DNA of 64,000 bases from Yuukianura sp. NJ FZ-2021 (taxonomy: Eukaryota): assembly GCA_046563655.1 (NCBI GenBank), contig CM102288.1, positions 2,418,001-2,482,000 of the forward strand, in the 5' to 3' direction. Positions within the stretch are counted from its first letter, which is position 1, and every line of letters begins with the position of its first letter. The translations under genes and the position numbers were made by a program. The notes beneath the pieces were generated by a model. That model ran no database searches. It worked only from the letters and a program-made list of their open reading frames with translations, and was not told the origin of the DNA. Positions 1 through 42,072 of this stretch are shown here, one piece after another.

Positions 1-763
1 TATGTCGGCTGTTCTTGTGTATGTGATGATGTCAAAATTTGGAAAGTGGCCTGTTGTTGGCTGGTTGCGAATCTTACGATCCTCCAGAACCACGTGGGAT
101 TTTGCCAAAGTGGGGAAGAGTGGTGAAAAGTATTGGCGTTTTTTAGGTTAGGGAGTTTCTGCGTTAGGTTTGGTTCTTTTATAAAAGTAAGGTTAGGGAG
201 TTTCAGCTGTAGCTTTTAAGGTTGGCTGATGCCAAATAGGGAATAAAAGGCTCCTTCACCACCGTCTCTTTCTTTCTTGTTTGCTTTCCTCTGGAAGCGA
301 CTGGATCCGGTAAAGAAAAAAGTTCTGGAGTGAAAATTTTCCACTGAAATTGGCGAATTTCCAGTTAAATTCTATTCATTCCAATTGTGTAACAAAAAAC
401 AACAAGGTTAAGGTAATACCATTTTTCAAATTTTTCACTACTGTTTCCACTTTTTGAAAAAATTTTAACAAAATTTGACAAAAATTAAAGAAAAAACTAA
501 AAATTGTTAAAACGTAAACGCCGCGACATAAAATTTTTAGTTTATGGAAAAAAAATACCTAGGCAGTAAATTTTTTTTTTGTAATTGGCGTCTTACTTTT
601 AAATATTTTTGCCAAATTCTAAATATTGTAGCATTGATTTTTTTTTAGATTTCAGTCATAAATTTTTTTAGTGTTAGTCTAACTTTGTGTTTTTTTATGA
701 AATGTGTTGAAATTTTTTGAGTTTACGACGTGTGTAAAACGTTTTGGTGTTTGTTACAGAAAA

Positions 764-3160
764 ATGGCTCCGACGAGCACAACTACGACGTTGACTCCTA
801 TTCCATCTCAAACCATCTTCCAATCAGAACCAATTCGGCAACGAAATGGCAGTAGAAAAACTACTGGCAGTACCACCAGCACTCCTGAAATTGATGAAGC
901 GACAGTTTTGGATCTAGAAGTTCCCACTAAAATTGTATGGCGAAATGTAGCTCTGTTTGCATACCTTCATGTGGCTGCTGTCTATGGTCTCTACCTCTTC
1001 CTCACGGCTCAAGTCAAATGGCAAACGTTTCTCTTGGGTAAGATTGCATAGATTCAATTAATAATTCATTAATCTAATTAATAATTACAACATTAATCAT
1101 ACAAATAATTAACCCAAACCATCACTTTCGGGTCAAAGGTCACACAGTTGATTTCCCAAAAGCAAAAGCATGAGAGTGGAGAGTGATGAAATGCATCGAA
1201 TTGAGAAAGCATAGAAGTGAGATGTGCAAAAAATAAATTCGCACACTTTCAGCAAAGGGCAAGCGCGCAAAAAATCTCCGTTCCGAGCACCACGTCCTGG
1301 ATATGTGCTTGCTTCAATTTGACCTTGACTCGGTCCTGTTGCGAGCAAAGTTTCTTTTCCATGTTCCAAAAAAGCATTGCGCAATTTAACCAACTTTCTT
1401 TTGCGCTTTTACTTGTTCAAAACGCGAGTCAGTTCAATTCCCAGAAGCTGAGAATTTTGTCTTAATTTGAAAAGAATTAATTAAATAATTACAATTAGCG
1501 AAACCAATTATGGACTTTTTTAACGTTCTTGTAAAACTTTTCCCACATGACGCTTTCACTAGTATGAGAAACTCTCACAAATTATGACGCATTTTGTGGA
1601 AAAATTCAAAGATTTGCACGATTTCGTCAAAATTAGTCAGACATAAGCTATAAAACTGAGGCGATGATTAAAATCGCAAAATTTTAAATTTGCTTTGGAA
1701 AAAGTAAATTTTTGCTAGGTATTTTTTTTTGCATTGATTCTCCGGGTTAAGAAGGAAAGCTATAAGGAAGCGATGCTAAAAATTTTCCATAAACACATAA
1801 AATTTTTGCACAAACATTCTAATTTTGATGTTTTTGGATTCCAGGAACTGTGTATTACTTTATGAGTGGTCTTGGAATTACCGCTGGTTGTCACCGGTAC
1901 TGGGCTCATAAATCCTACAAAGCCAAATTGCCACTCCAAATTCTTCTGACGATTTTCCAAACTGTTGCGTTCCAAAATTCGATTCATGAATGGAGTCGAG
2001 ATCACCGTGTTCATCACAAGTATTCCGAAACTAATGCTGATCCACATAATGCCAAGCGAGGATTCTTCTTTGCTCATATGGGATGGTTAATGGCCAAGAA
2101 ACATCCAGCAGTCAAGGTCAAGGGAGCTGGAATTGACATGTCTGACCTCGACAGTGACCCCATTGTCTCATTCCAGAAAAAGTAAACACAACAACAACCA
2201 TTTAACTCATTAATTTTGCCAAAAACTTTCCTAAAACTAAAATCTGACGAAATCAAGCCAGCAAAAATTCTCAAATTGCTTTTCTCAGAAAAATCCAAGA
2301 AGCTTCATAGCTTACATCCTCATCAATTTCTAAAAGGATCCGAAAACTTTTCAAAATTTTGAAAAAACTACACGAATTTTTTTTTCTTGTGTAGGTACTA
2401 CCTTCAAATGGTCTTCTTCCTGTCTTTCTTCCTGCCCACTCTCATTGCAATGACATTTTGGAATGAATCTTTCACTTCCGCCTGGTTCTTCATAACCCAA
2501 TTCCGATTTTGCGTCATTTTGCATTGGACATGGCTCGTCAATAGTGCTGCGCATATGTGGGGCAATCGGCCGTATGACAAGTAAGTAACAATATCATATT
2601 TCACTAACTGAAGCACTGATTAAAACACAATCTCAAATTAACTTTTGACCTGTAAATCTAATGATGTTTGGGGAAATTCAAGTACAGCGCATGTCCACTT
2701 CCTTCCTAAATATATCAATTGCGATTGAACTAATTTGACCTTTGACCTTAGGTCAATCAATCCATCTGAAAACAAGACCGTTGCAGTGTTGGCCATGGGT
2801 GAAGGTTGGCACAACTATCATCACACTTTCCCCTGGGACTACAAAACAGCAGAATTAGGCAACTACAGATTCAACCTAACAACAGCATTCATCGACTTCA
2901 TGGCAGCGATTGGATGGGCTTATGACCTCAAGACAGTACCAAAGAACTTGGTCCTCCAGCGTATCACTCGAACTGGTGACGGAACCCATGTCAGCCAAAG
3001 TCATGATCACCATGGAGACAGTCACGGTCACCATGGAGACAGTCACGGGCATGTCCATGAAGAAGGAGCACCGTGGGGGTGGGGAGACAAGGACATTCCT
3101 GCAGGAGATGTTGATCTCACACAAACACTCTATAGGCTCAGTAGTACTAGCACTGCATAG
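764..3160 (+). CDS. Acyl-CoA delta-9-type (stearoyl-CoA) desaturase, copy 1; exons 764-1037, 1845-2181, 2395-2580, 2752-3160
   Basis: His boxes HRYWAH, HRVHH and HNYHH; motifs KIVWRNV, ETNADPHNAKRGFFFAHMGWLM, NSAAHMWG and GEGWHNYHHTFPWDYK. All GT-AG junctions join in frame. Confidence 0.95.
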
Positions 3161-3307
3161 AAGACGGCCAAGAGCCAGTAAACAAGAAATAGTTAACACA
3201 TTTGACTAATCTTTGTAACAGTTTAGAACCCAATTTGAAATTAATTGTATGAAATATTAATGTATTTCTACATCCCTGCGACATAACTTATATTTAAAGA
3301 CTTTTAA

Positions 3308-4389
3308 GGGGGGATGGGAGCCAGCGTTTGTTTACGATTTGGTGTTAGCCATTGCCATTAGTAACAAAGCAAAATCACTGCTCAAACTTGCAAAAGTCGG
3401 CACTGTTTCCAATGGTTGACTAATCAAAGCTTTTCGCAGTATAGCAATTCAAACAACCTGGGACTCAACAAACAACTTGTATCCATGGAGACGGCTGATT
3501 TCAGTGCCGACATTTGCGAATTGCTAAATAATGTCAGAATTACATCTATTTTCTCTTATAAGTGTCTACATATCTTCTACATATTACAAGATAATGTGTG
3601 TCCACACCCAATGTTCGGCACTTTTGCTCCACATCCATGCACTCACTCTCCGATCTTTTGGCTTTGCCCTCTGTTATTCCTCCGAGCGAGAATCGGAGAA
3701 GTGCCGAATACTGCTCCCAATGCAAAAAGCATTGGCACAGGGTTTTCCCTCTGTTATTTTCTAATCTAAGTAGGCAATACACAGGCTCTGTGTCTGTCGT
3801 GTCGTATGTGCCCTCTCTACGTGGTGTGGCTAAGTCGGATCTCGGATTCCTCGGATTTCTATCCACCCTCTTTGCGCATGACAATTTACTCATGTTATAA
3901 AACACAAGGGTTGAAGTAAACTAAATACTAACTACCCAATTTTTGTTGGTCGATCTTTTTTTTTAATTTAACGATTGGGATATCGTTTTTTTTTTTTTAA
4001 ATTGATCCGTCAAACTGGTACGTACGCAACAATCAAGAATCTTTGGCTGGCCAAAGGCCAGCCAAGATTCTTGTCTTATTATAAAACCTAAAAATGCGTT
4101 TGAGGTGTCTAAAAATCCGGAAGACCATGGCGGACAATGATCAAGGACCAATTTCCCAAATTTTGGTGTCGTACAATGCTTAGACAAAATTGGACTTTGT
4201 ATCGTATTTTTAGCATCGTTTAGCAGCAAAATATCAAATTCTGACCCCTGATAATTCTTCCTCATGTATCAACGAATTTTTAGAGGTATTGTACAAATTT
4301 CTACGTCATTCCTGTGAGGACTTATAAGGCCTGGAAGTTAACCAATTTGAGCTGAAACGAGACCCCCCGTTGCTAAGGGATATGGGTCC
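3308..4389. mobile_element. About 1.08-kb non-autonomous insertion flanked by duplicated TTAA (Kolobok- or Crypton-like)
   Basis: TTAA at 3304-3307 and 4390-4393, with GG...CC termini. The paralogous copy has a single TTAA at 10734-10737 with matching flanks. Internal GC hairpin at 4034-4073. Confidence 0.75.
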
Positions 4390-5414
4390 TTAATTACAAT
4401 TCGTTCTCGTGTTATACCGGGTGTGTGACTTCTTCCTGACCAAACAGAACAGAGAGGACGAGGTTCGGGTTTTTATAAGTGTGACCTCAACTTAATCACG
4501 AGATTCGGATTTTTAGAGAACAAGAATTTTGGAAAAGAAAATCCTTAAAAAAATTCAAATAAACTTAATCTAAAAGGAAATTCGAAATCCAAAGTGTGCA
4601 GACATAAATCGAAATTGGGTTCTTCGAATTTTTGAGATTAATTTGAACAGCGTTTTTAGGAAATAGAAAGCTGTGACGGATTCGCCCAAAAACAAACTTG
4701 TCGAACAAGGTTTCTGACTTTGAAAATCTAAAAATTATCGAAATTGTGATATTGGGAAGTTTCTCGTCTTCATCTTCACGTCGGTTTCATTTTTCGGAGT
4801 GAAGGAAGCGGGTAGATTTGTGGAAATAATAATACTGCAGCCTCACTCGGTGGATACGGAAAAATTCTCGCCATTTCCAAGATCAAGTATGGTGGGCCCA
4901 TACTTCATCTTGGTTTTTGTCAGTTTGCAATTAAAAAGCTTTTCAATTGCATTTCTACTTCCGTTTCAAATGCGATTCACGTTGGTAAGAATTCAAATTT
5001 GCGACACCATTTTCTAGCGAGTTTTCAAAAGAAATGATCTGTTTATGATTAATTATGAAGTGGTGCTACAAATTTAAAAGGCTAACTTGAAATAATTTTG
5101 GACACAGCTATCCTTGCTGTTTTGTTTCTCTTTCCTGGAAATTGCAAACTACAACATCAGCCTCCCACAAAATGACCTTTATGAGTATGAGTTAATAATG
5201 ACATTAAGATTTTAATTTTACCTAATCAAGCCTAATCAAATTTTTAATGACAAGAATTTCACACTATTTCAACTTGTACAACTAAAGAACTAAACCAATA
5301 GTAAGCCACGTTTAAACTAGTTTTAAATTTTTGATAAGATTGTGTACTACGTTTTCTGTTGCGTATTACAATGAACTGTGGTAACCATTCAGTGAGAAGT
5401 CGCTGACCTTGACC

Positions 5415-5753
5415 TCAACGAATCCAGAGACACCTAGAGAAGCAATGATACCATACTGTACAATCGGAGTCCCTTGTACAAGTCTTGTAACTTTCTCCAG
5501 GTTCCCGGTTAGTTGCGTTTGAAGTCCAGCACCAGTTTGGCGCTCCACTTCCGCAATGGGCCCAGCAGTACCCCCTATTACATCCAGTTTCAAATCTCCC
5601 GGCCGGTTTGTCGACATATCGCTCCAGAACGGCTGTCATTCCTGCTGTAAATCCCGTCCCGGCAGACCCACCTTCTACAGTTTCCCAGAAAGTCACGGAC
5701 AGAAACAACGCCACGGCAATTGCAACTGCAAAGGATCCTGCGAACTTCAACAT
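5415..5753 (-). CDS. Secreted 8-Cys peptide, Tha p 2 allergen-like
   Basis: Single 112-aa ORF with a hydrophobic signal peptide and GCxxGYCWAxC...NWCWT...YxxCxxDSDC...WxxC...C pattern, matching my recollection of Tha p 2. Confidence 0.75.
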   Translation of the reverse strand: MLKFAGSFAVAIAVALFLSVTFWETVEGGSAGTGFTAGMTAVLERYVDKPAGRFETGCNRGYCWAHCGSGAPNWCWTSNATNREPGESYKTCTRDSDCTVWYHCFSRCLWIR

Positions 5754-7932
5754 TTTTCCAAAAGAAATTGAAAAAAAAAACTTTTTGCAAATTTTCTAAA
5801 AAGTCAACAAATGAGCCAAAAGCAAAAGTCTGTTCGTGAAACTTTAATTTTTGGCACTTAAAATGAGTCCTTAAGTACAATTTACACAGCAGCATCGCGG
5901 ATCAGTGTTAAAAGTTATGCAATTTCGTTCACGTCTTGAATTATCTAAGAAATTGTGTTGAAAATGTTAAAAATTAATTTGAACTAATTTTGGACGCGGT
6001 CATCCTTGCTGTTTTCCTTTTCTTCGAAATTGCAAAACTAAAACATTATCTTCCCAGAAAGTGGCGACCTTTTGAAACTTCGTGCGAAAACAAGTTTGAA
6101 ATTCGTGGAATTGAAAAATCGCTTTCAAAATTGTTATTTCCGACGAAACTTTTCTTTTCTCGTTTTCTTTTCATCTTTTCTAAAACGAAAAAGACTTCGT
6201 CCAGCGTCCCTGAAATCGAAATGTACAAAGTTAAAAAATCAAAACGTTACCGTTACCGTTGCCGGAATACATTACTGTTTATGTCAGCTTGAGTTTGGCG
6301 ACAAACTGACTACCACCGGGGATAAAAATAATTTCGTCAATCTGTTAAGAACAGCATCGAAAATCCAAACATACTTTCGGCAACATAACCTATTCTGTAC
6401 TTTTTTTTTGCGAATTTCGTGGCAGTAGCAGCGCTCGAACTTGAATTTAGGAGTGGACTACAGACTGTGTGGACTCTGTACAGTCCAGTGTACAATAAAC
6501 TTGACCAAAATAGACTTATTTATTTGCAAACACGTTGCAATCATGTTGCAATCAGCACAACAGGTTCAAAAGTATACAATTTTTTGAAGAATTGAACACT
6601 CACAGTCCAAATGCTTCCTGTGGAGTCCAACTTAATTCCTAAAAGAGGTGACACAGAGGTCAAAGGATTTTGACAACATTAAATTAGCATTGTCATTACA
6701 CTCACTGGACTTGAATCATCAAAACGTTTGCATGTGCTCAGCAAGTGCACCAGGAAACACCATAACTAACCTACGTGCAAATAACAAAAAAAGGTAGTGC
6801 AAAAAAAAATGCAAAAAAAAAAACCTTTCTCTAAGAACTTGTGCGAATCTGACGGTTGTCGGCTTATGAAAGTCAATGCCACGTCTTCTAGAGGTGGCAT
6901 GGCCTCATCCTCTCTCCTTTTAGCATCACACCATATCTGCAACATTGCAAAAAAAAAAGCTCGCAAAAAATTTGCACTTCCAGACTCGAGTCACCCGATT
7001 CTACACATTTGAACTTTAGTCCTACTTTTAATTGTGTCCGCAGAGTTTAACTAGAGTTAAAGTCCAAGTTAGGCTAGGTTAGCATGAGTGGAGGGGATTT
7101 GCGAATTTGCGAATAATTTGCCAATTCACCCATGCTACTGCTCCTGCCATTCACACGTATGTCGGCTGTGCTTGTGTATGTGATGATGTCAAAATTTGGA
7201 AAGTGGCCTGTTGTTGGCTGGTTGCGAATCTTACGATCCTCCAGAACCACGTGGGATTTTGGCAAAGTGGGGGAGAGTGGTGAAAAGTATTGGCGTTTTT
7301 TAGGTTAGGGAGTTTCTGCATTAGGTTTGGTTCTTTTATAAAAGTAAGGTTAGGGAGTTTCAGCTGTAGCTTTTAAGGTTAGCTGATGCCAAATAGGGAA
7401 TAAAAAGCTTCTCCACCACCGTCTCTTTCTTTCTTGTTTGCTTTCCTCTGGAAGCGACTGCATCCGGTATAAAAAAAAAGTTCTGGAGTGAAAATTTTCC
7501 ACTGAAATTGGCGAATTTCCAGTTAAATTCTATTCATTCCAATTGTGTAACAAAAAACAACAAGGTTAAGGTAATTCAATTTTCCGCATTTTTCACTACT
7601 GTTACCACTTTTTGAAAAAATTTTAACAAAACTTTACAAAAATTAAAAAAAAACTAAAAATTGTCAGAATTAAAAATCGTGTGGCTGAACGTGAATCTAA
7701 ATTTTTCAGCTACCACCCCCAGGCAGTAAAATTTTTTTTGTAACTGGTGTCTTACTTTTAAATATTTTTTCTCCAAATTCTAAATTTTGATCACGTCGAT
7801 TTCGACAATTTTTTTTTGAAATTTGAGTCATAATTTTTTTTAAATGCTAGTCTACCTTTTTTTATGAAAAATGTTGAAATTTTTTGAGTTTACGACGTGT
7901 GTAAATACGTTTTTGGTGTTCGTTACAGAAAA

Positions 7933-10660
7933 ATGGCTCCGACGAGCACAACTACGACGTTGACTCCTCTTCCATCTCAAACCATCTTCCAATCAGAACC
8001 AATTCGGCAACGAAATGGCAGTAGAAAAACTACTGGCACTACTCCTGAAATTGACGAAGCGACAGTTTTGGATCTAGAAGTTCCCACTAAAATTGTATGG
8101 CGAAATGTAGCTCTGTTTGCATACCTTCATGTGGCTGCTGTCTATGGTCTCTACCTCTTCCTCACGGCTCAAGTCAAATGGCAAACGTTTCTCTTGGGTA
8201 ACATTGCATAGATTCAATTAATAATTCATTAGTCTAATTAATAATTACAACATTAATCATACAAATAATTAACCCAAACCATCACTTTCGGGTCAAAGGC
8301 TTGATTTCCCAAGAACTAATCATGACAGTGGAGAGTGATGCATCGAATTGAGAAAGCATAGAAGTGAGATGTGCAAAAAATAAATTCGCACACTTTCAGC
8401 AAAGGGCAAGCTCGCAAAAAATCTCCCTTCCGAGCACCACGTCCTGGATATGTGCTTGCTTCAATTTGACCTTGACTCGGTCCTGTTGCGAAGCAAGTTG
8501 CTTTTCCATGTTCCAAAAAAATCATTGCGCAATTTAACCAACTTTCTTTTGCGCTTTTACTTGTTCAAAGTACGTCAGTTCTACTCCCAGAATTTTGTTT
8601 TGCTGAGAATTTTGTCTAAATTTGAAAAGAATTAATTAAATAATAACAATTAGCGCAACCAACTACGGACTTTTTTAACGTTCTTGTAAAACTTTTCCCA
8701 CGTGACGCTTTCACTAGTATGAGAAAATCTCTCAAATTATGACGCATTTTGTACAAAAATTCAAAGATTTCGTCAAAATTAGACAGACATAAGCTATAAA
8801 ACTGACGCGATGATTAAAATCTCAACATTTTTAATTTGTTTTGAAAAATGTGAATTGTTTACCATTTTTTGCCTTGATTCCTCCGGGTTAACAAGGAAAG
8901 CTATAAGGAAGCGATGCTAAAAAAATTTCCATAAACACATAAAATTTTTGCACAAACATTCTAATTTTGATGTTTTTGGATTCCAGGAACTGTGTATTAC
9001 TTTATGAGTGGTCTTGGAATTACTGCTGGTTGTCACCGGTACTGGGCTCATAAATCCTACAAAGCCAAATTGCCACTCCAAATTCTGCTGACGATTTTCC
9101 AAACTGTTGCGTTCCAAAATTCGATTCATGAATGGAGTCGAGATCACCGTGTTCATCACAAGTATTCCGAAACCAATGCTGATCCACATAATGCCAAGCG
9201 AGGGTTCTTCTTTGCTCATATGGGATGGTTAATGGCCAAGAAACATCCAGCAGTCAAGGTCAAAGGAGCTGGAATTGACATGTCTGACCTCGACAGTGAC
9301 CCCATTGTCTCCTTCCAGAAAAAGTAAAAACAACAACAACTCAAATTTTTGCAAAAACTTTCCAAAAACTAAAATCTGACGAAATCAAGCCAGCAAAAAT
9401 TCTCAAATTGCTTTTCTCAAAAAAATCCAAGGAGCTTCATAGCTTACATCCTCATCAATTTCTAAAAGAATCCGAAAACTTTTCAAAATTTAAAAAAAAA
9501 CTACATTTTTTCTTCTTGTGTAGGTACTACCTTCAAATGGTCTTCTTCCTGTCTTTCTTCCTGCCCACTCTGATTGCAATGACATTCTGGAACGAATCTT
9601 TCACTTCCGCCTGGTTCTTCGTAACCCAATTCCGATTCTGCGTCATTCTGCATTGGACATGGCTCGTCAATAGTGCTGCGCATATGTGGGGCAATCGGCC
9701 GTATGACAAGTAAGTAACAATATCATATTTCATTTTCATGCTAACTGCTAAAAAAAGACTTAAGATGTGCTGAGATCACCGTCAGGTCATTTCGTAATCC
9801 CAAAATTTTGCAATAATTCCTGTCCTGCTCTGTAACTATGCAAAAATTAGCCGAGCTGTGAAGAAAGAGATCATATTACAATGTCACCTCTGGACATGCC
9901 CTCTAATTGAACTCATCTCATGCCGAACTACTTCAACACTTGTTTAGTTCACTTCGCTTTGACACTTATCGTTAATCAAAAAACCCAAGTTATGAGGAAA
10001 TTGTTACTCCGCGGCATTATTTTAACATTGAACTTGACCGTGATGCTTTTTTTAATTTGCGATTCTACGAAATTGCTTAAGCCGAGGTTAATCTGTTGCT
10101 AACTGAAGCACTGATTAAACTACAATCTCAAATTAACTTTTGACCTAAATCGAACCATGTTTGGGGAAATTCAAGTACAGCGCATGTCCACTTCCTTCCT
10201 AAACATATACCATTGTATCAATTGTGGTTGAACTAATTTGACCTTTGACCTTAGGTCAATCAATCCATCTGAAAACAAGACCGTTGCAGTGTTGGCCATG
10301 GGCGAAGGTTGGCACAACTATCATCACACTTTCCCCTGGGATTACAAGACGGCAGAATTAGGCAACTACAGATTCAACCTAACAACAGCATTCATTGACT
10401 TCATGGCAGCGATTGGATGGGCTTATGACCTCAAGACAGTACCAAAGAACTTGGTTCTCCAGCGTATCACTCGAACTGGTGACGGAACCCATGTCAGCCA
10501 AAGTCATGATCACCATGGAGACAGTCACGGGCATGTCCATGAAGAAGGAGCACCGTGGGGGTGGGGAGACAAGGACATTCCTGCAGGAGATGTCGATCTC
10601 ACGCAAACGCTGCATAGGCTCAGTAGTAGCACTGCACAGGAGACAGCCAAGAGCCAGTAA
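7933..10660 (+). CDS. Acyl-CoA delta-9-type desaturase, copy 2; exons 7933-8197, 8987-9323, 9524-9709, 10255-10660
   Basis: Near-identical to copy 1, with the same internal exon lengths (337 and 186 nt) and all His boxes intact. Confidence 0.95.
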
Positions 10661-17573: not shown

Positions 17574-20382
17574 ATGGCGGCAGGTCGAAATCCAAATTGG
17601 TTGTACAATGTGAGCGACGTGGGTGCTGTTGTACTACCGAAAGGAACGCTGGAACCGGTCAAGCGATTTGCAGTGTCAGTCGATTCTGGAGTAAAAAGTT
17701 ACGGAAAAACTGAAATTCTTAAAAATTTAAACATGCATGTCCAGGAAGGCACAATGTAAGTCCAAAAAACTTTGACCTCAAGTTGACCTTCATTTTTTTA
17801 CCTTGAGTTGATTCTACTTTAAATTTTGAATTGCAGTTATGCAATGCTGGGTTCTTCCGGTTGTGGTAAAACGACGCTACTCTCGTGTATTGTCGGACTT
17901 CGTCAACTGGACAGCGGAACAATTCGTGTTTGCGGGAGAGCGCCGGGGTCAAAAGGTTGCGGAGTTCCTGGGAAGCTGATTGGCTATATGCCACAGGTGA
18001 AATTTTTGTTTTTCAGGCTAAAAATAATTGCGTCAAAGTTCAAGTTAAAGAAAAGTTGCGTCCCTCGTCCAGGAAGTTGCTCTCAATGGAGAATTTACGA
18101 TCCGAGAAGCCTGTCAGTACTTTGGACGGCTCTATGGCATGGACCGGGTCAAAGTTGACGAACGGGTCAAACACCTTGTCAATCTGCTTCACCTTGGCAA
18201 ATGCCGTGGCTTACTCAAAAATTTTAGGTGAAAACATAACATCACTCACACACTCACAGAAGAAATCGAAATCTAATATTAGAAATTTTGAAACCTGCTG
18301 TTTTGCTCATTTTTTTGTTTAGTGGCGGCGAACGACGACGCGTCTCTTTCGCTGTGTCGCTGATTCACGAACCGGAAATTTTGATTTTGGATGAACCAAC
18401 TGTCGGAGTGGATCCACTTTTGCGTCAAGCGTAAGAAACTACATCAACAATTTTTAAAATTCAGAAAACTTTAGTCTGTTTTTTGAAAAACTTTCAACTT
18501 ACAGAATTTGGCAGCATCTTGGTGATTTGGTAAAACAGAACAACACAACAGTCATCATCACGACGCACTACATTGAAGAAACCCAGAACGCTCACATGGT
18601 GAGAGGTCAAAGTTCAATGAAATCAGAGGTCACCGAGGTCAAATTCCAGAATTCAGCGATTTTTTATTTTGTTTTCAGATTGGCCTAATGCGAAACGGTC
18701 GCTTGATTCTGGAAGACTGTCCAGCAGAACTTCTGAAACGCTTTGAATGTAAACTACTAGAGGAAGTCGTGCTTCGCTTTTGTTTAAAAGATGAAGGAAC
18801 TGAAAATCAGCGTAAATTGAAACCAGCGATTAATCAAGGATCTTCCAGAAGCGTCATCAGAAGCATCGCTAGTACAAAGACTCATTCTCGCCTCAAGGCT
18901 GAAGATGAAGAGGGCATTCAAGGCATTGAAGTTGGACAGAACGCTGATCCTGGACGCTGGAACACCAACAGAGACTACTCCACAAAATCATTCCAGCGTC
19001 TCCAGGCTATGCTTATCAAAAACCTTTTTGTACTTTTTCGAAGTATTGGGTAAGAAACTTCAAAATTTCAAAAAACTCCCAGGAATTTTGAAAATTCGTT
19101 TTCTTTTCACCAGATACTTGCTGTTCCTGTTCATTCTTCCAGCAGCACAAATCGTGATGATTTGTGTCTGTCTGTCATCGGATCCAAAGGCACTTAACTT
19201 TGGAGTTGTCAATCACGAAGTACCCCCTTCAGCCAATTGCTCATTTGAACAAGGACTCTGCTTAATTCAAAATTTCAGTTGTGGATACTTGCAAGCACTT
19301 AAGTCGGACACAATCAACTTGGTTCCTTACGAATCAGAAAGTACTGCTCTAAGGGCTGTCCAGAGTGGGCACTTAGTAGGGTACTTGACAATTCCTGAAA
19401 ACTTCACTTTCGCTCTCTTCGAACGTGTCATGGCCACTGGAAGTATGGACTTGGACAACACTACTATTCAAAATTCTCAAGTCTCCTTTGCCATGGATAT
19501 GAGCAATAGCCAAGTTGCGCTGATTTTGCAGCGACTTTTTCTAACCAGATTTCGAGATTTCCTGAGAGCCCTTATGGAAGCGTGTGGCCAAAATCCTGAT
19601 GGGAAGGACATTCCCCTGGTGGTAAGTCTACTAGAATTTTCGGAACTAAACCAAAATTTAAGAAAGTTTCAAAATTGAAAAAAGTTTCAAAATTTTGAAA
19701 AATTTTCAGTTTTTACCTCCAGTTTATGGAGAAGATGGCGGAAAGATTACGAACTTCGTGACTCCCGGGGTGACGACAGCATTTCTGTCGTTCCTGTCGT
19801 CACTGACATGCGGACTGGCGTTTATTGGAGAAAAGAAGGACGGAATGGTCCATCGTACGATTGTGGCTGGAGTTAAAAAGCTGGAAATTATGCTGGCCCA
19901 CTTATGTACTCAATTTTTAGTCCTTATTGCGCAGACGTCAATTGCCTTCTTGGCCATGTTCTTACTGTTCAACATTCCCCATCTCGGCTCAATTCCACTG
20001 GCATTTGTACTTGTAACGCTCAACGGAATTGCTGGAATGTCGCTCGGTATGTCCAGAAACCCTAAAATTTTAAAAATACTTGAATTTGAAAAGTTTTTTA
20101 CTTTGAGGATTCCTGGCTGCAACTTACTGTAACGAAGAGAAGCACGCCATGATGCTGGCGATTGGCACCATTTTGCCATGTTTCCTTCTATCTGGTGCCA
20201 TTTTTCCTTCGGAAGCTCTCCCCCTGTCACTTCAGTACATTGGTTACCTACTGCCGGGTACTTTGCCAGGGGAGGCCTTAAGGGCCATCTTACTCAAGGG
20301 GTGGGGCATGAACTACTACATTGTCTGGATTGGATTTGTGTCGGCTGTAGCCTGGATCGTCATTTACTGGACACTTACTGCA
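17574..20382 (+). CDS. ABC transporter, subfamily H (NBD followed by ABC2-type TMD); 3' end lost in assembly gap
   Basis: Walker A GSSGCGKT, signature SGGERRRVS, Walker [20 protein letters not shown], and TMD motifs EKKDG and LLSGAIFP. Confidence 0.9.
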
Positions 20383-20482
20383 NNNNNNNNNNNNNNNNNN
20401 NNNNNNNNNNNNNNNNNNNNNNNNNNNNNNNNNNNNNNNNNNNNNNNNNNNNNNNNNNNNNNNNNNNNNNNNNNNNNNNNNN
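20383..20482. other. Assembly gap (100 N)
   Basis: Run of exactly 100 N. Confidence 1.
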
Positions 20483-20723
20483 ACATCACCTCATATGGGA
20501 TTAATTACTGTAGGAATTAGTCGTCTTGTGGCAATTAGTCAACTGAATTTTACTTAAACTGATTTTTCAATACCTAAAAACATTTTAATTTTAAAAATAT
20601 TTAACAAACTACAAGTATTGAACTTAGCGATTCCTTTAGAATTTAGTAATTTGATCAATAATAATTCAAAATTCACCTAATTTCGAACAATTATCGCAAT
20701 AGTTTTAGTCTTTGATTTCGTCA

Positions 20724-21197
20724 TCAAGGAATTTGTTGCCTGCTTCTTAAAATATTTAGCTCCGTTACGACCTGCTCGTAATTTTTAATGAACGCGTCAC
20801 GATTGGTTTCAGCGAGTTCAGCAGTATCATCGTGGACAACCTTGTTTCGTACAGTGGCTAAAAATCTTAGTTTCTTGACCAATGCCGCTGGCAACTCCGT
20901 TTCAATGCTGGTCGTCCTTTCATGCAGTCCTCTTCCTGTTGCCCCAAATTGTGTTTCCAGTCGCTGTTCCAGTTGCTTCGAAACTCGAATGACAAGTTCG
21001 TACGTATTGGCAGGATATGCAGGAATCTGGGCTCTGGAATCTGGAATTTAGTTGAAAATAATACTCCATTTTAGTTGTAAGTTAACGTTAATGCTGGACA
21101 GATTAATTGAACGATTTCACGAACGTCTATTTCTGGAGCGGGTTGACCTTTCCCTGAGTGGGGAAGGATGTGGCGACGTTGAAAAACAGGAACCCAT
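20724..21197 (-). CDS. Small HEPN-superfamily (DUF4145-like) protein with N-terminal MGSC acylation motif; exon 1 21197-21121, exon 2 about 21033-20724
   Basis: Manual translation: MGSCFSTSPHPSPLRERSTRSRNRR / AQIPAYPANTYELVIRVSKQLEQRLETQFGATGRGLHERTTSIETELPAALVKKLRFLATVRNKVVHDDTAELAETNRDAFIKNYEQVVTELNILRSRQQIP*. RNKVVH lies at 20849-20832. Two GT-AG choices both keep frame. Confidence 0.75.
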
Positions 21198-21638
21198 TTA
21201 ACAGCACTTTTTTTAAGTTAAGTTTCCACCACAAAGTTCATAGAACTTTCAGCAAATGTTGGAGAAATCCATGAATCCATGAAATCCTGCAACATTATAT
21301 CAATAGAAATGTTAAGAGTATGCAATTTGGTTGGATGAACCAGAGGTTTACTATTCTTTTGAACAAAGTAGAATTGTGTCTGAAATCAGGACAAATAAAA
21401 GAATCACGCAGAGCTTATCAAATAACTGCCCACTCGACATTATAAAACGCGCATCAAGCAATTTGGAATTGTGAAGTAGGTATGTTGTTGAAAGAAAGAA
21501 AACAGAACTGAAAGAAAACAGAATGATTTTATTTCAACGAAATGAAAGGACTTATTATATTATATTATTGCCTACGTTTTCAAAGTAATTGTAAGAACGC
21601 TAACCCAATTTCAAAATGATGTCCGGAGAGGATGATTT

Positions 21639-22479
21639 TTAGGAGCTGGTTGACCCGAAATCCAGCATTACTTTCCCCAGATCAGTGGCTTTGTCTTTGT
21701 CCAGAAGAGCAGAAACGATTGCCAGAGAAAATTCCAAGGCAGTTCCAGGTCCCCGGCTGGTGATTAAATTTCCATCGACAACTACACGATCTTCCTTGTA
21801 GTGGTAATTGGATCCGGCTTCCAGAAATTTATCTTTGACTACTGGATGGGACGTTAGAGATTTTCCAATGCAGATTCCGTTTGATATGAATACAGTAGGA
21901 GCTGAAATTAAAAATTAAACGAGGATAAATTACGGTTTAAGCTTAAAGCCGTTTAAAACCTTTTTAATTTTGAGTAACCTGCACAAATTGCAGCAATCAG
22001 CCGACCATCGCCAGCTGATGCTTCTTGAGCCTTCAATAATTTGCCGACTTCAGGTGACTGACCGGCACATGGGAAATCAACATAAAGAAATCGTTTTTAG
22101 TGTCAATCTTAACGTTAATTGTCAATTGTTTATTGATTTTACCTGTGCAAATGCTTCGGCTCCCTTTGCTCCACCAGGGAGAACAATCACATCGTAAATT
22201 TGACCTTTAGAGGTTAGGTCAGCCAAACTTCCTTCAGGTACAATTACGACGTTTCTGGAACAAATTACTGGATCCTTCGACAGTAAACCAGCGACGGAAA
22301 CGTCCACCTTCAGTATTTAGGTAAATGTCATCATTTAACACAAGCAAATGTCACCAGAAATGTCAAATGTGACAAATGTCACTTACACCGGCACGACGAA
22401 GAACGTCAATTGGCGTGACAGCTTCAATTTCCTCAGATCCATCAGCAATAATCACCAGTGCTTTCTTGGCAGTTGTCAT
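21639..22479 (-). CDS. DJ-1: Protein deglycase DJ-1 (PARK7 family), 4 coding exons
   Basis: [35 protein letters not shown] (catalytic Cys) and [15 protein letters not shown] motifs. Confidence 0.95.
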
Positions 22480-40673: not shown

Positions 40674-42072
40674 ATGTTGCAAAATGGTTGCCAGTTCCTT
40701 AGTGCCAAAATGCTGGTGTTGGGACTGGCTCTGGTTTTAGTTTCAACAGAAACTGAAGGTCAAGGGGCCCCTGGACCGAGTCAAGGGCCCCCACCGCAGG
40801 GTGGACAGCCTGGACCAAGACCGTTTGTAATTCCACCACAGATTGCTGCCAAGTTGCAGCAGCAGCAGTTGCAGCAACTTCAGCAACAACAGGTACATGT
40901 TGCAAAATTTTTGTTTCTCTTTTCTGCCATTCAAGATTCACCCGTACAGAAATTGCAAAAAAATAAAATCTGCGAAGTTTGTGTGTAATGCTTGAGCCTC
41001 AAAAAATTCGAAAAAGTTTTACATTTTTTTTGCAAAAACTTTTCATTTTATTTTTACATTATTTTTTATTTTATTTTTCAGCTACAGCAGCAGCAACTTC
41101 AGTTCCAAAGCCAGCAGCAGCAGCAGCGCCCTCAACAGCCACCTCAGAAACCGCAGCCACAAGCATCGCCAATTCCGAAATTCATTCCGCGAAATTCAGT
41201 TGAGTCCGATTCGTACCAAAAACGCTACTCTCCAGCCCCTCCAGGACCAAAACCACAATCACTTAAGGTAAAAACGAAAGTTAGTCTAAAATTTATGTTC
41301 AAATACATCAAAATGTCAGAGGTCAAAGGTCAACCTCATTTTTTTCAGCCACAACCTCAGCAAGCTTCTAAAGAAGAAGAGGAAGACTACTACGAAGATG
41401 AACAACCAGACAAACTTGCAATTTTGTTGCAAAAGAGTAAATTTGAATGCAGTTCTAAAAAAGATGGCTACTACGCTGATGAAACGCTGAATTGCGAAGT
41501 GTTCCACTACTGCCAGGATGCCAAGAAGCATTCTTGGATGTGTCCAGAAAACATGAACTTTCATCAAGTATGAACTTCAAAAATTGAGAATTTTTGGAAA
41601 ATCCGAATTTTCAAATTTTGAACTTTGCCATTTTGTTCAGGTCCACCTAATTTGCATGCCGCCATCTCAAGACAACATTTGCACAAAATCTGCAAATTTT
41701 CACTTCGTCAATGACTACTTGTACAGACCAATCAACGAAAAGGAAGCAGCTTCGACCAACTCCAGCCTCAAATATGCTGATCGCTACTACCCCCAAGTAT
41801 GCCATGACCTTGTGACCTACATTTGAATTTTCCCGCTAAAAACTTGACCTTTGACCTAATTTTCTGTTTTTCAGGGATACACGCCTGGCATGGCCATCGA
41901 TGAACTGCAGGATCAACAACCATATCAGCCCAGGGCTCCACAGAAATTTGGACAAAACGTTTTTTACAATTCAGAGGCAGTTAACATTCCGCTGAGCCAA
42001 AGACGACCACCGTCAAGGGCTGACCGAGACAGAGTACGGCAGCAGTCTACCACGGATTACTACGACGAATGA
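40674..42072 (+). CDS. Secreted Gln/Pro-rich protein with a CBM14 (peritrophin-A) chitin-binding domain
   Basis: Signal peptide, polyQ stretch and FECSSKKDGYYAD…CEVFHYC…HSWMCPENMNFHQVHLIC. Confidence 0.88.

Follow-up and report, generated by a model that had tools for sequence, protein, structure and literature searches.

A probable two-exon gene for a putative membrane-tethered HEPN-fold RNase in the genome of Yuukianura sp.

The analysed window, the whole stretch of 64,000 nucleotides (64 kb) from contig CM102288.1 of Yuukianura sp. NJ FZ-2021, contains on its minus strand an open reading frame (20724..21047) whose coding part, 20727-21047, upon direct translation gives 107 intact codons, free of stops and frameshifts. 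The initial annotation had described a minus-strand two-exon gene that is missed by the ORF track, with a second exon encoding a quoted peptide and a helical tail. This peptide, YELVIRVSKQLEQRLETQFGATGRGLHERTTSIETELPAALVKKLRFLATVRNKVVHDD, is present exactly in the 107-residue translation and is followed by the helical tail. Since methionine is absent from the entire frame, an upstream exon is required. An ATG at position 21197 opens an upstream ORF, MGSCFSTSPHPSPLRERSTRSRNRRS, which ends in a stop codon and has MGSCFS as its start peptide. As determined by a script, this ORF can be joined to the domain by seven in-frame GT..AG combinations, all of which (7/7) retain MGS, while 5/7 retain MGSCFS. 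The three most plausible junctions are listed in Table 1; they are predicted from the sequence, and the choice between them is ambiguous. With its intact ORF, in-frame GT..AG joins and upstream ATG, the two-exon gene described earlier is borne out, the splice model being a predicted one. The encoded protein begins with a predicted lipidation signal (MGSCFS) at its N-terminus, which a short linker rich in proline, serine and arginine connects to a single, stand-alone DUF4145-like domain with a predicted HEPN fold.

Table 1. Coordinates of the HEPN gene and the adjoining DJ-1 features in the window
Feature	Position	Strand	Remarks
ATTAAA, candidate polyadenylation signal	20584..20589	minus	~135 nt past stop; inferred from sequence reading only
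Stop codon TGA	20724..20726	minus	no CaaX box before stop
Exon 2	20727..21040	minus	pre-domain linker (..AQIPAYPANT) and entire HEPN-like domain; C-terminus ..LNILRSRQQIP
RNKVVH, Rx4H motif	20832..20849	minus	residues 67-72 (R67, N68, H72); C-terminal end of modelled helix 54-72
GRGLHE, second conserved motif, family-specific	20919..20936	minus	H42 invariant in alignments A1, A2, A3
Intron, preferred model	21041..21124	minus	84 nt, GT..AG
Exon 1, preferred model	21125..21197	minus	24 codons + 1 nt; encodes MGSCFSTSPHPSPLRERSTRSRNR
MGSCFS, N-myristoylation consensus (Gly2, Ser6)	21180..21197	minus	exon 1; Cys4 candidate palmitoylation site
Start codon	21195-21197	minus	ATG of exon 1
Splice option (exon 1 end / exon 2 start)	21125/21040	minus	intron 84 nt; protein 129 aa; preferred
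Splice option	21148/21033	minus	intron 114 nt (21034-21147); protein 119 aa
Splice option	21121/21033	minus	intron 87 nt (21034-21120); protein 128 aa
Splice donors (exon/intron)	21125, 21148, 21121	minus	GAC/GTTCGT, AAG/GTCAAC, TTC/GTGAAA, respectively; read from sequence
AATAAA after DJ-1	21528-21533	minus	sequence reading
DJ-1 stop codon	21639-21641	minus	~440 nt upstream of HEPN exon region
DJ-1 last coding exon, upstream host gene	21642..21914	minus	Pfam DJ-1_PfpI, E 6.2e-16

The gene lies directly downstream of DJ-1, the last coding exon of which has the 'DJ-1 beta' entry 4e08 as its best PDB sequence match (E 6e-18). A gap-free sequence from 20483 to 64000 joins the HEPN gene to DJ-1 and other animal genes, and the only run of N in the window, at 20383-20482, is situated approximately 240 nt downstream of the stop codon of the HEPN gene. 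The animal-type genes that are linked in the window comprise DJ-1, Kazal, CDK5 activator, RhoGEF and CBM_14 genes, which supports an animal origin of the window DNA and upholds the earlier claim that the contig is not a contaminant. The GC and GC3 values of the HEPN gene (0.452 and 0.402) are comparable to those of nine neighbouring exons (GC 0.34-0.52 and GC3 0.30-0.57, most near 0.42-0.44). Such a host-like composition implies a long residence in the genome, during which an ORF free of selection would probably not have remained intact. Within the 64-kb window no paralogue of the HEPN gene and no Rfam match were found, and no DJ-1, ABC or Kazal gene adjoins any of the 160 loci of family members (L001-L160).

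For the window protein, a phmmer search against 1.84 billion representative proteins reveals 1090 homologues with E<=1e-3, of which 343 reach E<=1e-10, a signal that, judged by sequence comparison, is far above chance. The family ranges over oomycetes, crop pathogens among them, as well as diatoms, green algae, a chytrid and many bacteria; the relatives in Vibrio and other proteobacteria that the initial annotation had named were indeed found. None of the 23 organism-named matches among the 120 matches listed is from an animal. The best identities are 57% across most of the domain (P0017), 67% over a 60-residue segment (L003, from a planctomycete) and, likewise locally, 62% (P0005). A close orthologue was not found in any collection searched, and a collection of 15 billion proteins contains no identical protein. 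The nearest Atlas clusters of the window protein (P0001) are bacterial, an observation to be taken as a lead only. Two or more domain copies in tandem are present in 12 of the best 150 matches, which is offered as a hint for the idea of a dimer.

The window protein displays two conserved motifs, the Rx4H motif RNKVVH, in agreement with the HEPN catalytic motif Rx4-6H that had been claimed for it, and the family-specific GRGLHE. It keeps all residues that are invariant in alignment A1 (K24, H42, R67, N68 and H72) and in alignment A2 (H42, R67, N68 and H72); like H42, the motif residues R67, N68 and H72 do not vary in alignment A3 either. RNxxxH was found in 271 of the 275 family proteins fetched, and 265 of these 271 also contain a G..G.H-type motif. 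The Pfam DUF4145 model (PF13643, gathering cut-off 23.1 bits) does not match the window protein at E<=10, its sole Pfam match being DUF3644 at E 0.02. However, DUF4145 is the commonest Pfam family among the homologues, with 12 matches in 44, of which three reach or exceed the cut-off (30.0 bits for P0016, 26.6 for P0020 and 23.1 for P0021), and 16 matches in 128 at E<=0.01 in another set, and eukaryotic homologues carry the UniRef name 'DUF4145 domain-containing protein'. These matches indirectly support the view that the window protein is a DUF4145-like relative without Pfam-defined membership. The HEPN/DUF4145 call of the initial annotation is thus retained as a kinship, via the homologues and a HEPN-like fold, but not as a Pfam assignment of the protein itself.

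The AlphaFold2 (AF2) model of the window protein (pLDDT 87.2, pTM 0.75) is a helical bundle with helices spanning residues 15-34, 41-47, 54-72 and 77-104. The top rows of a Foldseek search are HEPN toxins (6m6u, 6m6w, 1wwp with probability 0.95, 5yep, 7bxo, 7ae9 and 2hsb), all with E>=0.3 and none of the rows reaching E<=1e-3. In VIA-align the top row is the HEPN domain 2hsb, with Z 8.9 and an rmsd of 2.8 over 95 residues, a modest score for a helical bundle given that Z values under approximately 13 can reflect a generic helix arrangement. Further rows at Z 6.4-8.6 are HEPN or Csm6 proteins by entry title (1wwp, 5yep, 8xdj, 7ae2, HepS 9oik, 4nqf and Csm6), together with 1ylm and 1ufb, which we take to be HEPN proteins. 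Equally high scores are obtained for a non-HEPN helical row, the LPD-3 complex (Z 8.7), and for Roquin (Z 8.6), which contains a HEPN-like domain. A single-sequence search of the PDB gave no match to the window protein, and a profile search gave only a spurious 22-mer SuiA match (E 0.026). A two-copy complex prediction scored 0.12 against a mark of 0.32, which allows no call either way. The model and its structural matches indirectly support a HEPN-like fold, predicted as an all-alpha, up-and-down bundle.

Membrane attachment appears as a second constant of the family. MGxxxS/T is the established N-myristoylation rule, according to which the window protein would be lipidated; its MGxxxS start rests on the predicted splice model. 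In alignment A1, M1, G2 and S6 are conserved at 90% or more. The bacterial form of the family has a C-terminal transmembrane (TM) helix that follows a disordered linker, whereas the eukaryotic form, in oomycetes, diatoms, green algae and a chytrid, combines an N-terminal MGxxxS with a C-terminal CaaX box. A Cxxx ending is found in 145 of the 271 RNxxxH proteins, 115 of which start with MGxxx[ST] and none of which has a C-terminal hydrophobic helix. In the 126 proteins without CaaX a TM-like C-terminal segment occurs 93 times, accompanied by an MGxxx[ST] start in only four cases (4/93). At bacterial genome loci no CaaX ending is observed (0/80), and 64/80 are TM-flagged. The pre-domain sequence Y-P-A-N-T-Y-E of the window protein fits the motif [H/Y]-x-x-N-x-[Y/F]-E of the CaaX group, in which 108 proteins have H or Y at -5 and 133 have N at -2. 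Unlike most eukaryotic members, the window protein lacks the CaaX box, and a search of 19900-20760 for a further mini-exon that would supply one gave no plausible candidate, with a small doubt left by the 100-N gap. A similar CaaX-less copy (P0038, MGCLQS start) is encoded on a metagenome contig that carries an animal-type cadherin gene, so the gene is not unique to Yuukianura and another animal has one. Both proteins have a cysteine near Gly2, a feature of only 4 of the 115 MG-start CaaX proteins, and Cys4 may therefore replace the missing CaaX box as second membrane signal. As far as the sequences indicate, membrane anchoring would be a theme conserved across the family, with a type of tether that differs between the bacterial and eukaryotic forms. 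Literature searches yielded no description of tail-anchored bacterial or myristoyl-plus-prenyl eukaryotic HEPN forms.

The position of the window protein between these two forms bears on its origin. A carefully built tree of 53 rows, selected by hand so as to have short branches and named taxa, unites the window protein with 26 lipid-type proteins against 26 TM-type proteins (UFboot 95, SH-aLRT 81). Two larger quick trees place it just outside the lipid-type group; before the larger set of 98 rows was used, six rows had been removed as duplicates or for their long branches. An AU test prefers neither placement (p 0.49). When the profiles are restricted to the domain, the bacterial-type HMM gives the window protein 119.1 bits and the eukaryote-type HMM gives it 115.1 bits, which puts it outside the range of the eukaryote-type members, all 49 of which score 3.8 bits or more higher with their own profile than with the other. 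Trees and profile scores thus suggest that the window domain falls at the boundary between the bacterial and eukaryotic forms. A clade of the window protein and the cadherin-contig group is not rejected (AU p 0.475, lnL -0.7), and no bacterial sister or donor is identifiable in the trees.

The initial annotation had regarded the gene as bacterial-type and horizontally acquired. In its most direct form, the idea is that a DUF4145-like HEPN gene, tail-anchored in its bacterial source, passed straight into this animal lineage, lost its TM tail and became domesticated through the capture of a host 5' exon that happens to give MGSCFS. This account draws on the profile preference, the quick trees, the high local identities to the planctomycete protein and P0005, the Atlas lead and the lack of animals among the named matches, as well as on the intron, which separates the N-terminal extension precisely from the domain. 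It would, however, demand a convergent origin of both MGxxxS and the [Y]-P-x-N motif, which are missing from the bacterial ORFs, and it is opposed by the well-supported grouping in the careful tree, by the second CaaX-less MGC.. copy in an animal context, by the lack of a bacterial sister and by the host-like GC and GC3; we regard it as unlikely. What stands of the earlier claim is the boundary position in quick trees and profiles, while the eukaryote-form start, the pre-domain motif and the careful tree speak against the bacterial type. The gene is not a recent bacterial import, as the trees show no bacterial sister, another animal has a copy and the composition is host-like, in keeping with full adaptation to the host genome. 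As part of the best explanation, it would branch as a divergent member at the base of the eukaryotic lipid-anchored lineage, or as the sister of that lineage. It would then either have been inherited vertically from early times and lost in most animals, or have been acquired long ago from bacteria or another eukaryote. A giant virus as shuttle was also considered and rejected: none of 31 IMG/VR pattern matches are eukaryotic-form relatives, and only 2 of 48 are bacterial-form relatives.

Several known systems allow a comparison. Pfam DUF4145 is a HEPN family of the clan KNTase_C. The DUF4145 domain of E. coli RAZR, a ring-activated zinc-finger RNase, is an experimentally active HEPN RNase, and both RNA cleavage and phage defence depend on its conserved arginine and histidine (PMC13017515). 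The window protein resembles this domain in its predicted helical HEPN-type architecture with conserved Arg and His. RAZR differs in having an N-terminal zinc-finger and an Rx7H arrangement (R146/H154), in forming 24-mer rings on phage proteins and in being soluble (PMC13017515), whereas the window protein consists of a single small domain with Rx4H, an additional invariant GxGLHE motif and a predicted lipid anchor (TM in the bacterial relatives). The best structural matches of the window protein are the HepT/HEPN toxins of HEPN-MNT systems (5yep, 6m6u, 7bxo, 7ae2, 8xdj) and minimal HEPN proteins (2hsb and 1wwp, together with 1ylm and 1ufb), with Foldseek probabilities up to 0.95 and VIA Z 7.4-8.9 over approximately 90-97 residues. 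The toxins are similar in size and likewise contain an Rx4-6H motif, but they share only 7-17% identity with the window protein and are cytosolic and AMPylation-controlled, whereas the window family is predicted to be membrane-anchored. Solved HEPN toxins have a dimeric, composite active site, as stated in the paper on RAZR (PMC13017515).

The idea of a HEPN RNase that processes RNA at the cytosolic membrane face is likewise found in the Ire1 KEN domain, in the predicted C6orf70/ERMARD and in three bacterial TM-linked HEPN groups. These proteins differ in that their TM helices are N-terminal or internal and are combined with sensor domains. One of the three bacterial groups, present in Vibrio, shows overlap with DUF4145 (PMC3710099, section 15). 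Its TM helix is N-terminal and accompanied by a WP signature, whereas the bacterial relatives found here have a C-terminal helix. In this 2013 HEPN survey DUF4145 is recorded only from bacteria, archaea and dsDNA viruses (PMC3710099). The proposed anchor itself has its parallel in dual-lipidated proteins. Src-family kinases and G-alpha subunits follow a myristoyl-plus-second-signal rule, and the MG(C/xC)xxS start of the window protein and P0038 is similar to theirs; the likeness concerns targeting signals only and implies no homology. To our knowledge, the combination of N-myristoylation and C-terminal prenylation in one protein of approximately 120 residues is unusual.

The best explanation for the segment 20724-21197 (minus strand) is an intact two-exon animal gene without annotation, which would encode a putative membrane-tethered HEPN RNase of approximately 119-129 amino acids. 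We hold this joint reading with a confidence that is only slightly better than even. Gly2 would be myristoylated and Cys4 palmitoylated, the latter modification substituting for the missing farnesyl group, such that the domain would be tethered to the cytosolic side of a membrane. There two copies would pair, in the manner of other HEPN RNases, and build a composite active site from R67, N68 and H72, which would cut RNA near the membrane in a metal-independent way. A stress or antiviral role of the window protein is a guess.

The gene could also be real without encoding a nuclease, its product binding RNA or nucleotides at the membrane as an adaptor or regulator, comparable to the HEPN domains without catalytic function in nucleotidyltransferase partners, Swt1 or sacsin. 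The 2013 survey describes many HEPN families as non-catalytic (PMC3710099), and the invariant GxGLHE motif lies outside the classical HEPN active site. Furthermore, an unregulated stand-alone RNase would be toxic, yet none of the 12 bacterial loci examined has a conserved antitoxin-like neighbour or an adjoining MNT antitoxin gene. Defence-like neighbours are present at three of these loci (HsdR at L009, NERD proteins at L041 and L076), and among the PADLOC models the window protein has only a weak match, PDC-S19 (E 0.025, 11.8 bits). Against a non-catalytic role, the retention of RNxxxH in nearly all family proteins (271/275) is the pattern of catalytic HEPN families, and the sole characterised DUF4145 domain, that of RAZR, is an RNase dependent on its conserved R and H. 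A non-nuclease function is therefore considered rather improbable.

Still less probable is that the copy, intact as it looks, is a silent relic, untranscribed or decaying, with a fortuitous upstream ATG and fortuitous splice sites. The splice donors GAC/GTTCGT and AAG/GTCAAC are weak and seven combinations fit, the CaaX box of the eukaryotic form is missing, the ORF track lacks the gene and the large protein collection holds no identical protein. On the other hand, the 107 codons are uninterrupted and keep every invariant residue, the upstream ORF gives exactly the MGxxxS start of the family, and the composition implies long residence. Finally, a DJ-1-HEPN fusion isoform, in which the HEPN exon would serve as an alternative 3' exon of DJ-1, given the common strand, the distance of approximately 440 nt and an AG acceptor just upstream of the domain, is barely credible, as DJ-1 has its own stop codon and AATAAA, the in-frame upstream ATG yields the family-typical MGxxxS, none of the 275 family proteins fetched shows a DJ-1 fusion, the scanned homologues show no Pfam DJ-1 match and DJ-1 adjoins none of the fetched loci.

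HEPN RNases are central to bacterial defence, in Cas13, Csm6, toxin-antitoxin and abortive-infection systems, whereas those known in animals are mainly RNase L, Ire1 and a few processing enzymes. If the putative membrane-tethered RNase is real, the animal repertoire gains a stand-alone HEPN protein with a predicted lipid anchor. A wider reading, to which we assign a low probability, is that the window protein is the animal member of an ancient, undescribed class of RNases working at membrane surfaces in both bacteria and eukaryotes, and that it acts as an innate-immune or stress effector. In that case the catalytic HEPN domain would have been conserved while the tether was swapped, from a tail-anchor helix in bacteria to myristoyl plus farnesyl in protists and myristoyl plus palmitoyl in animals, and RNA would be cut, e.g., at membrane replication sites of RNA viruses or at membrane-bound ribosomes, when clustering pairs the domains. 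The simpler tale of a bacterial gene that jumped into an insect-like animal is corrected, since an old eukaryotic lineage fits at least equally well. The analysis exposes an uncharacterised family whose constants, as read from sequence, are an active-site motif and membrane attachment, and provides a testable hypothesis on where and how small HEPN proteins act: one domain, attached to membranes by predicted anchors of different chemistry in different domains of life.

The minus-strand open frame that encodes the HEPN-like domain (P0001, 107 residues, with RNKVVH at residues 67-72) contains the peptide quoted in the initial annotation letter for letter, and is not a gene by itself because it contains no methionine. 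An ATG approximately 150 nt upstream opens a frame of 26 codons (MGSCFSTSPHPSPLRERSTRSRNRRS, then a stop). A script trying every GT..AG pair yielded seven in-frame joins of this frame to the domain, three of which are plausible candidate junctions (see the table), and all three retain MGSCFS at the N-terminus. Since the upstream ATG joins the domain by GT..AG, the segment can be read from stop codon to start codon as a two-exon gene, and the hidden spliced gene of the initial annotation is a solid prediction.

Coordinates of the candidate gene, its neighbours in the window and features on related loci
Feature	Coordinates	Strand	Remark
Predicted HEPN gene	20724-21197	minus	stop codon to start codon
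Domain frame (containing exon 2)	21047 to 20724	minus	TGA at 20724-20726
Upstream ATG	21197	minus	
Splice candidate 1	exon 1 end 21125, exon 2 start 21040	minus	84-nt intron, 129 aa
Splice candidate 2	exon 1 end 21148, exon 2 start 21033	minus	114-nt intron, 119 aa
Splice candidate 3	exon 1 end 21121, exon 2 start 21033	minus	87-nt intron, 128 aa
Assembly gap	20383-20482		only gap in the window
Fatty-acid desaturase, two exons	1829-2182 and 8971-9324	plus	Pfam sweep
ABC transporter (ABC_tran, ABC2_membrane_3)			Pfam sweep; converges on 3' end of HEPN gene
DJ-1		minus	Pfam sweep; directly upstream of HEPN gene
Kazal inhibitor			Pfam sweep
CDK5 activator (p35)			Pfam sweep
RhoGEF-SH3 protein			Pfam sweep
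CBM_14 chitin-binding protein	40989-41570		Pfam sweep
MBOAT			Pfam sweep
Mucin-like open frame	44101-45762	minus	554 codons
L009 (Vibrio plasmid)	508-3762		type I restriction R subunit adjoining family member
L041 (Ferrimonas)	5960-6982		NERD-domain protein adjoining family member
L076 (Xanthomonas)	2092-3729		NERD-domain protein adjoining family member
L011 (Moraxellaceae)	2573-6094		FtsK with HEPN-like domain
L033 (Moraxellaceae)	2603-6028		FtsK with HEPN-like domain
L091 (metagenome contig)	156-851, 3179-3742, 5869-6333		Laminin-G/EGF, cadherin cytoplasmic-domain and P0038 ORFs

The genomic setting was examined by a Pfam sweep of 138 ORFs, comprising 126 hand-chosen from 194 ORFs with a length of 75 aa or more (overlapping and antisense frames being dropped) and 12 more. 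The DJ-1 exon has 'DJ-1 beta' (4e08) as its best PDB match and human DJ-1 as the next, and the CDK5-activator exons match human p25/p35. The CDK5 activators are known as an animal family; together with the CBM_14 and Kazal proteins they make it likely that the DNA comes from an arthropod-like animal. The HEPN gene is linked gap-free to DJ-1 and on to position 64000, and the composition of exon 2 (GC 0.452, GC3 0.402) falls between the extremes seen in nine exons nearby (GC 0.34-0.52, GC3 0.30-0.57), in agreement with the initial annotation, which had placed the gene next to the host gene DJ-1 and held that the contig is not a contaminant. Elsewhere in the window, the two desaturase exons, 7142 nt apart, are identical at 348 of 354 positions, which suggests a recent tandem duplication of the desaturase gene. 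The mucin-like frame near the CBM_14 gene is Ser/Thr/Pro-rich, with GSGS(S)WNQNAG repeats, at least five copies of ..TSGSATSTSTKRYPAGGYDPYETPKP.. and a hydrophobic tail at its end; it has no Pfam match.

The window protein itself is not matched by the DUF4145 model of Pfam, its sole Pfam match being DUF3644 (E 0.02), but DUF4145 is the commonest family among its homologues. At E≤0.01 it matches 12 of 44 homologues, of which three reach the 23.1-bit cut-off (P0016, 30.0; P0020, 26.6; P0021, 23.1 bits), and there are weaker matches to HEPN_Apea, Swt1-like HEPN, RiboL-PSP-HEPN and HepT. In a second set it matches 16 of 128 members; UniRef labels the eukaryotic members 'DUF4145 domain-containing protein'. 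An AlphaFold2 model (128-sequence alignment, pLDDT 87.2, pTM 0.75) consists of helices 15-34, 41-47, 54-72 and 77-104, the third of which is closed by RNKVVH. A Foldseek search with this model gives no row at E≤1e-3, but HEPN proteins occupy seven of the first ten rows and ranks 11-12. These include the HepT/MntA entries 6m6u, 6m6w, 7bxo and 7ae9, then 7ae8 and 2hsb. In addition, ranks 3-4 are taken by the HEPN proteins 1wwp (probability 0.95) and 5yep, and rank 8 by a redesigned protein with no relation to them. The first row of an independent all-against-all structural search is the HEPN domain 2hsb (Z 8.9, rmsd 2.8 over 95 aa), and further entries within its top 35 rows include 1wwp, 5yep, 8xdj, 7ae2, 9oik (HepS), 4nqf and two Csm6 entries, with titles naming HEPN or Csm6, as well as 1ylm and 1ufb, presumably HEPN too. 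For a helical bundle such scores are modest, the unrelated helical LPD-3 reaching Z 8.7, and the fold evidence alone is supportive, not decisive. The Rx4-6H motif of HEPN RNases, pointed out in the initial annotation, is present as R-N-x3-H in 271 of 275 fetched family proteins, with R, N and H invariant in the alignments. A second invariant motif, GxGLHE, contains His42; no published description of it was found. Given the invariant R-N-x3-H, the profile-level link to DUF4145 and the modelled fold, the prediction of a HEPN fold of DUF4145-like type is accepted. One DUF4145 domain, that of the phage-defence protein RAZR, has been studied experimentally, and is described as an RNase needing the conserved Arg and His (PMC13017515).

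The family is large. Against 1.84 billion cluster representatives, phmmer finds 1090 matches at E≤1e-3 and 343 at E≤1e-10, with identities of about 35-68%, a best E of 2e-24 and none at E≤1e-30; a word-indexed search gives only nine matches, the nearest at 58-62% identity. Neither collection holds a close orthologue or an identical protein, which fits the earlier remark that the gene is unannotated. Four relatives (P0007, P0009, P0010 and P0003) form a subgroup with IKNDYELVIRVSKQLE, in which the sequence either ends or turns into read-through beyond ..GLHEKV(S/T)..A(R/K)V, suggesting that their genomes, probably algal, have a mid-domain intron at a position differing from that in the window gene. 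Prokaryotic-style gene calling on eukaryotic metagenome contigs cuts certain proteins short where an intron begins; P0007, P0009 and P0010 are examples.

When the 271 proteins with RNxxxH are sorted by a crude hydropathy rule and simple motifs, two architectures emerge. In the 145 proteins ending in Cxxx, the last residue is mostly S, M, C or A, i.e. of farnesyl type; 115 start with MGxxx[S/T], and 131 have this motif upstream of the domain, a count that allows for mis-called starts. A hydrophobic C-terminal helix is present in none of the 145, so the two kinds of C-terminus never occur together in one protein. Among the other 126, such a helix is found in 93, after a disordered Pro/Arg/Gln-rich linker; in this group of 126 the domain begins at residue 2-4, and only 4 of the 93 start with MGxxx[S/T]. 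Among prokaryotes, scanned with a single genome for each species, 204 of 462 pattern matches are relatives. The 80 best of these all come from bacteria, namely Planctomycetota, Cyanobacteria, Verrucomicrobiota, Actinomycetota and Gammaproteobacteria (Vibrio, Ferrimonas, Acinetobacter and other Moraxellaceae, Xanthomonas), so that the relatives which the initial annotation placed in Vibrio and other proteobacteria do exist; none of the 80 has a CaaX end and 64 are flagged for a C-terminal helix. A profile of the MG/CaaX alignment gave 600 matches at E≤1e-5, the best 120 of which include five MMETSP transcripts and 23 proteins with organism names: 18 oomycetes, two diatoms, two green algae and one chytrid, with no animal or bacterium among the 23. 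Haptophytes were added as a lead from a language-model atlas. From these sequence patterns, the domain looks to be held on the membrane by a tail-anchor helix in bacteria and by lipid anchors at both ends in eukaryotes.

Neighbour genes are not conserved across the 12 bacterial loci that have complete flanks, and none of these loci shows an antitoxin-like partner. Defence-type neighbours adjoin the family member in three of them (L009, L041 and L076) and not in the other nine; most of the remaining loci place it beside housekeeping genes. In two Moraxellaceae loci the HEPN-like domain has no gene of its own but forms part of FtsK, occupying roughly residues 480-570 of a protein of 1142-1174 aa, in the linker between the 4TM and alpha/motor domains; L031, L090 and L095 probably share this arrangement, in which the DNA translocase would incorporate a membrane-tethered HEPN domain. 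Tandem domains occur in 12 of the 150 best matches, as two copies each (P0012, P0014, P0016, P0020, P0021, P0022, P0031, P0036, P0056, P0069 and P0110) or four (P0032), and several of these proteins have a TM helix at the C-terminus. The tandem forms may represent 'pseudo-dimers' within a single chain, as expected if the working unit is a domain pair, as in other HEPN RNases. Among 2.9 million IMG/VR viral contigs, bacterial-type relatives are found on only two (L161 and L162) and the eukaryotic form on none.

By architecture the window protein is predicted to be of the eukaryotic type. Exon 1 supplies MGSCFS, with Gly2 and Ser6, and the domain is preceded by Y-P-A-N-T-Y-E, matching the pattern of the CaaX group, in which position -5 is H or Y in 108 cases and position -2 is N in 133. 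There is no C-terminal helix and no CaaX box, and a search for a hidden downstream CaaX exon found none. The domain sequence alone appears to leave the protein on the fence between the two forms. In two quick trees (86 and 98 rows) the lipid-type proteins group together (SH-aLRT 87 and 61) with the window protein just outside, whereas in a careful tree of 53 hand-picked rows it lies inside, at the base (UFboot 95/SH-aLRT 81). The deep branches are weak because the alignments are short (about 100 columns), and an AU test does not tell the two placements apart (p 0.49). A direct bacterial origin, in line with the 'bacterial-type' label of the initial annotation, is slightly favoured by domain-only profile HMMs, which give 119.1 bits for the bacterial and 115.1 for the eukaryotic type, their own profile being preferred by 48/48 bacterial-type (minimum difference 0.7 bits) and 49/49 eukaryotic-type members (3.8 bits). 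This origin is nevertheless unlikely, as three independent N-terminal features of eukaryotic type and the careful tree outweigh a difference of 4 bits.

The window gene is not unique to its animal. A metagenome scan gave 104 relatives among 296 pattern matches, none above 66% identity and the best at 50-53% over the full domain. One of the metagenome contigs, L091 (GC 0.40), encodes P0038 in a single exon, with MGCLQS.., a long Pro/Ser spacer, RNKVVH and a polybasic end without CaaX. It also carries an ORF with Laminin-G and EGF domains and one with a cadherin cytoplasmic region (PF01049, E 3e-12, 46.8 bits against a cut-off of 24), presumably the tail of an invertebrate classical cadherin, which identifies the contig as animal; by this reading of its ORFs, another animal carries a family gene. 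Further members are found on L081 and L114, contigs with the same name prefix as L091. P0038 groups with P0015, P0017 and P0019 in the careful tree (100/97), a group named after the tree was seen, though on independent features, and including the proteins most similar overall to the window protein (57%, 52% and 52% identity). Constraining the window protein to this group lowers the log-likelihood by 0.7 units (AU p 0.475). Three features are common to the window protein and P0038: the lack of CaaX, a Cys adjoining Gly2 and RNKVVH; an early Cys is found in only 4 of the 115 MG-start CaaX proteins. A myristoyl group needs a second membrane signal, and the early Cys in these two CaaX-less proteins fits this rule. 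The second signal would be farnesyl in most lipid-type members, and a palmitoyl-Cys or polybasic tail in the window protein and P0038.

In the proposed mechanism, Gly2 of the window protein would be myristoylated co-translationally and Cys4 palmitoylated, and the protein would reside on the cytosolic face of a membrane. Two domains would pair to form the active site, with metal-independent cleavage of RNA close to that membrane; as guesses, local crowding or a partner might be the trigger, and the role might be in stress or antiviral responses. A 2013 HEPN survey proposes, by analogy with Ire1, that signals lead the TM-linked HEPN proteins of bacteria to break down RNA on the membrane's inner face; its listing of DUF4145 is confined to bacteria, archaea and dsDNA viruses (PMC3710099). 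The TM-linked groups covered there have N-terminal or internal helices, unlike the C-terminal tail anchor of the bacterial form described here. Searches of the main text of papers found no paper by title or abstract on eukaryotic DUF4145 members, no relevant paper on HEPN domains with myristoyl or prenyl anchors, none on this gene under HEPN horizontal transfer into arthropods, none on a tail-anchored HEPN domain and, among the papers listed, none on HEPN in Phytophthora, in diatoms or as eukaryotic homologs. Within the scope of these searches, neither the lipid-anchored form of eukaryotes nor the anchor swap has been described; eukaryotic members are already in databases as uncharacterised DUF4145 proteins. 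Since both forms appear to be membrane-anchored by different means, membrane attachment looks to be part of the function of the family. The two membrane-anchoring forms are the main new point, a tidy observation at the level of the family.
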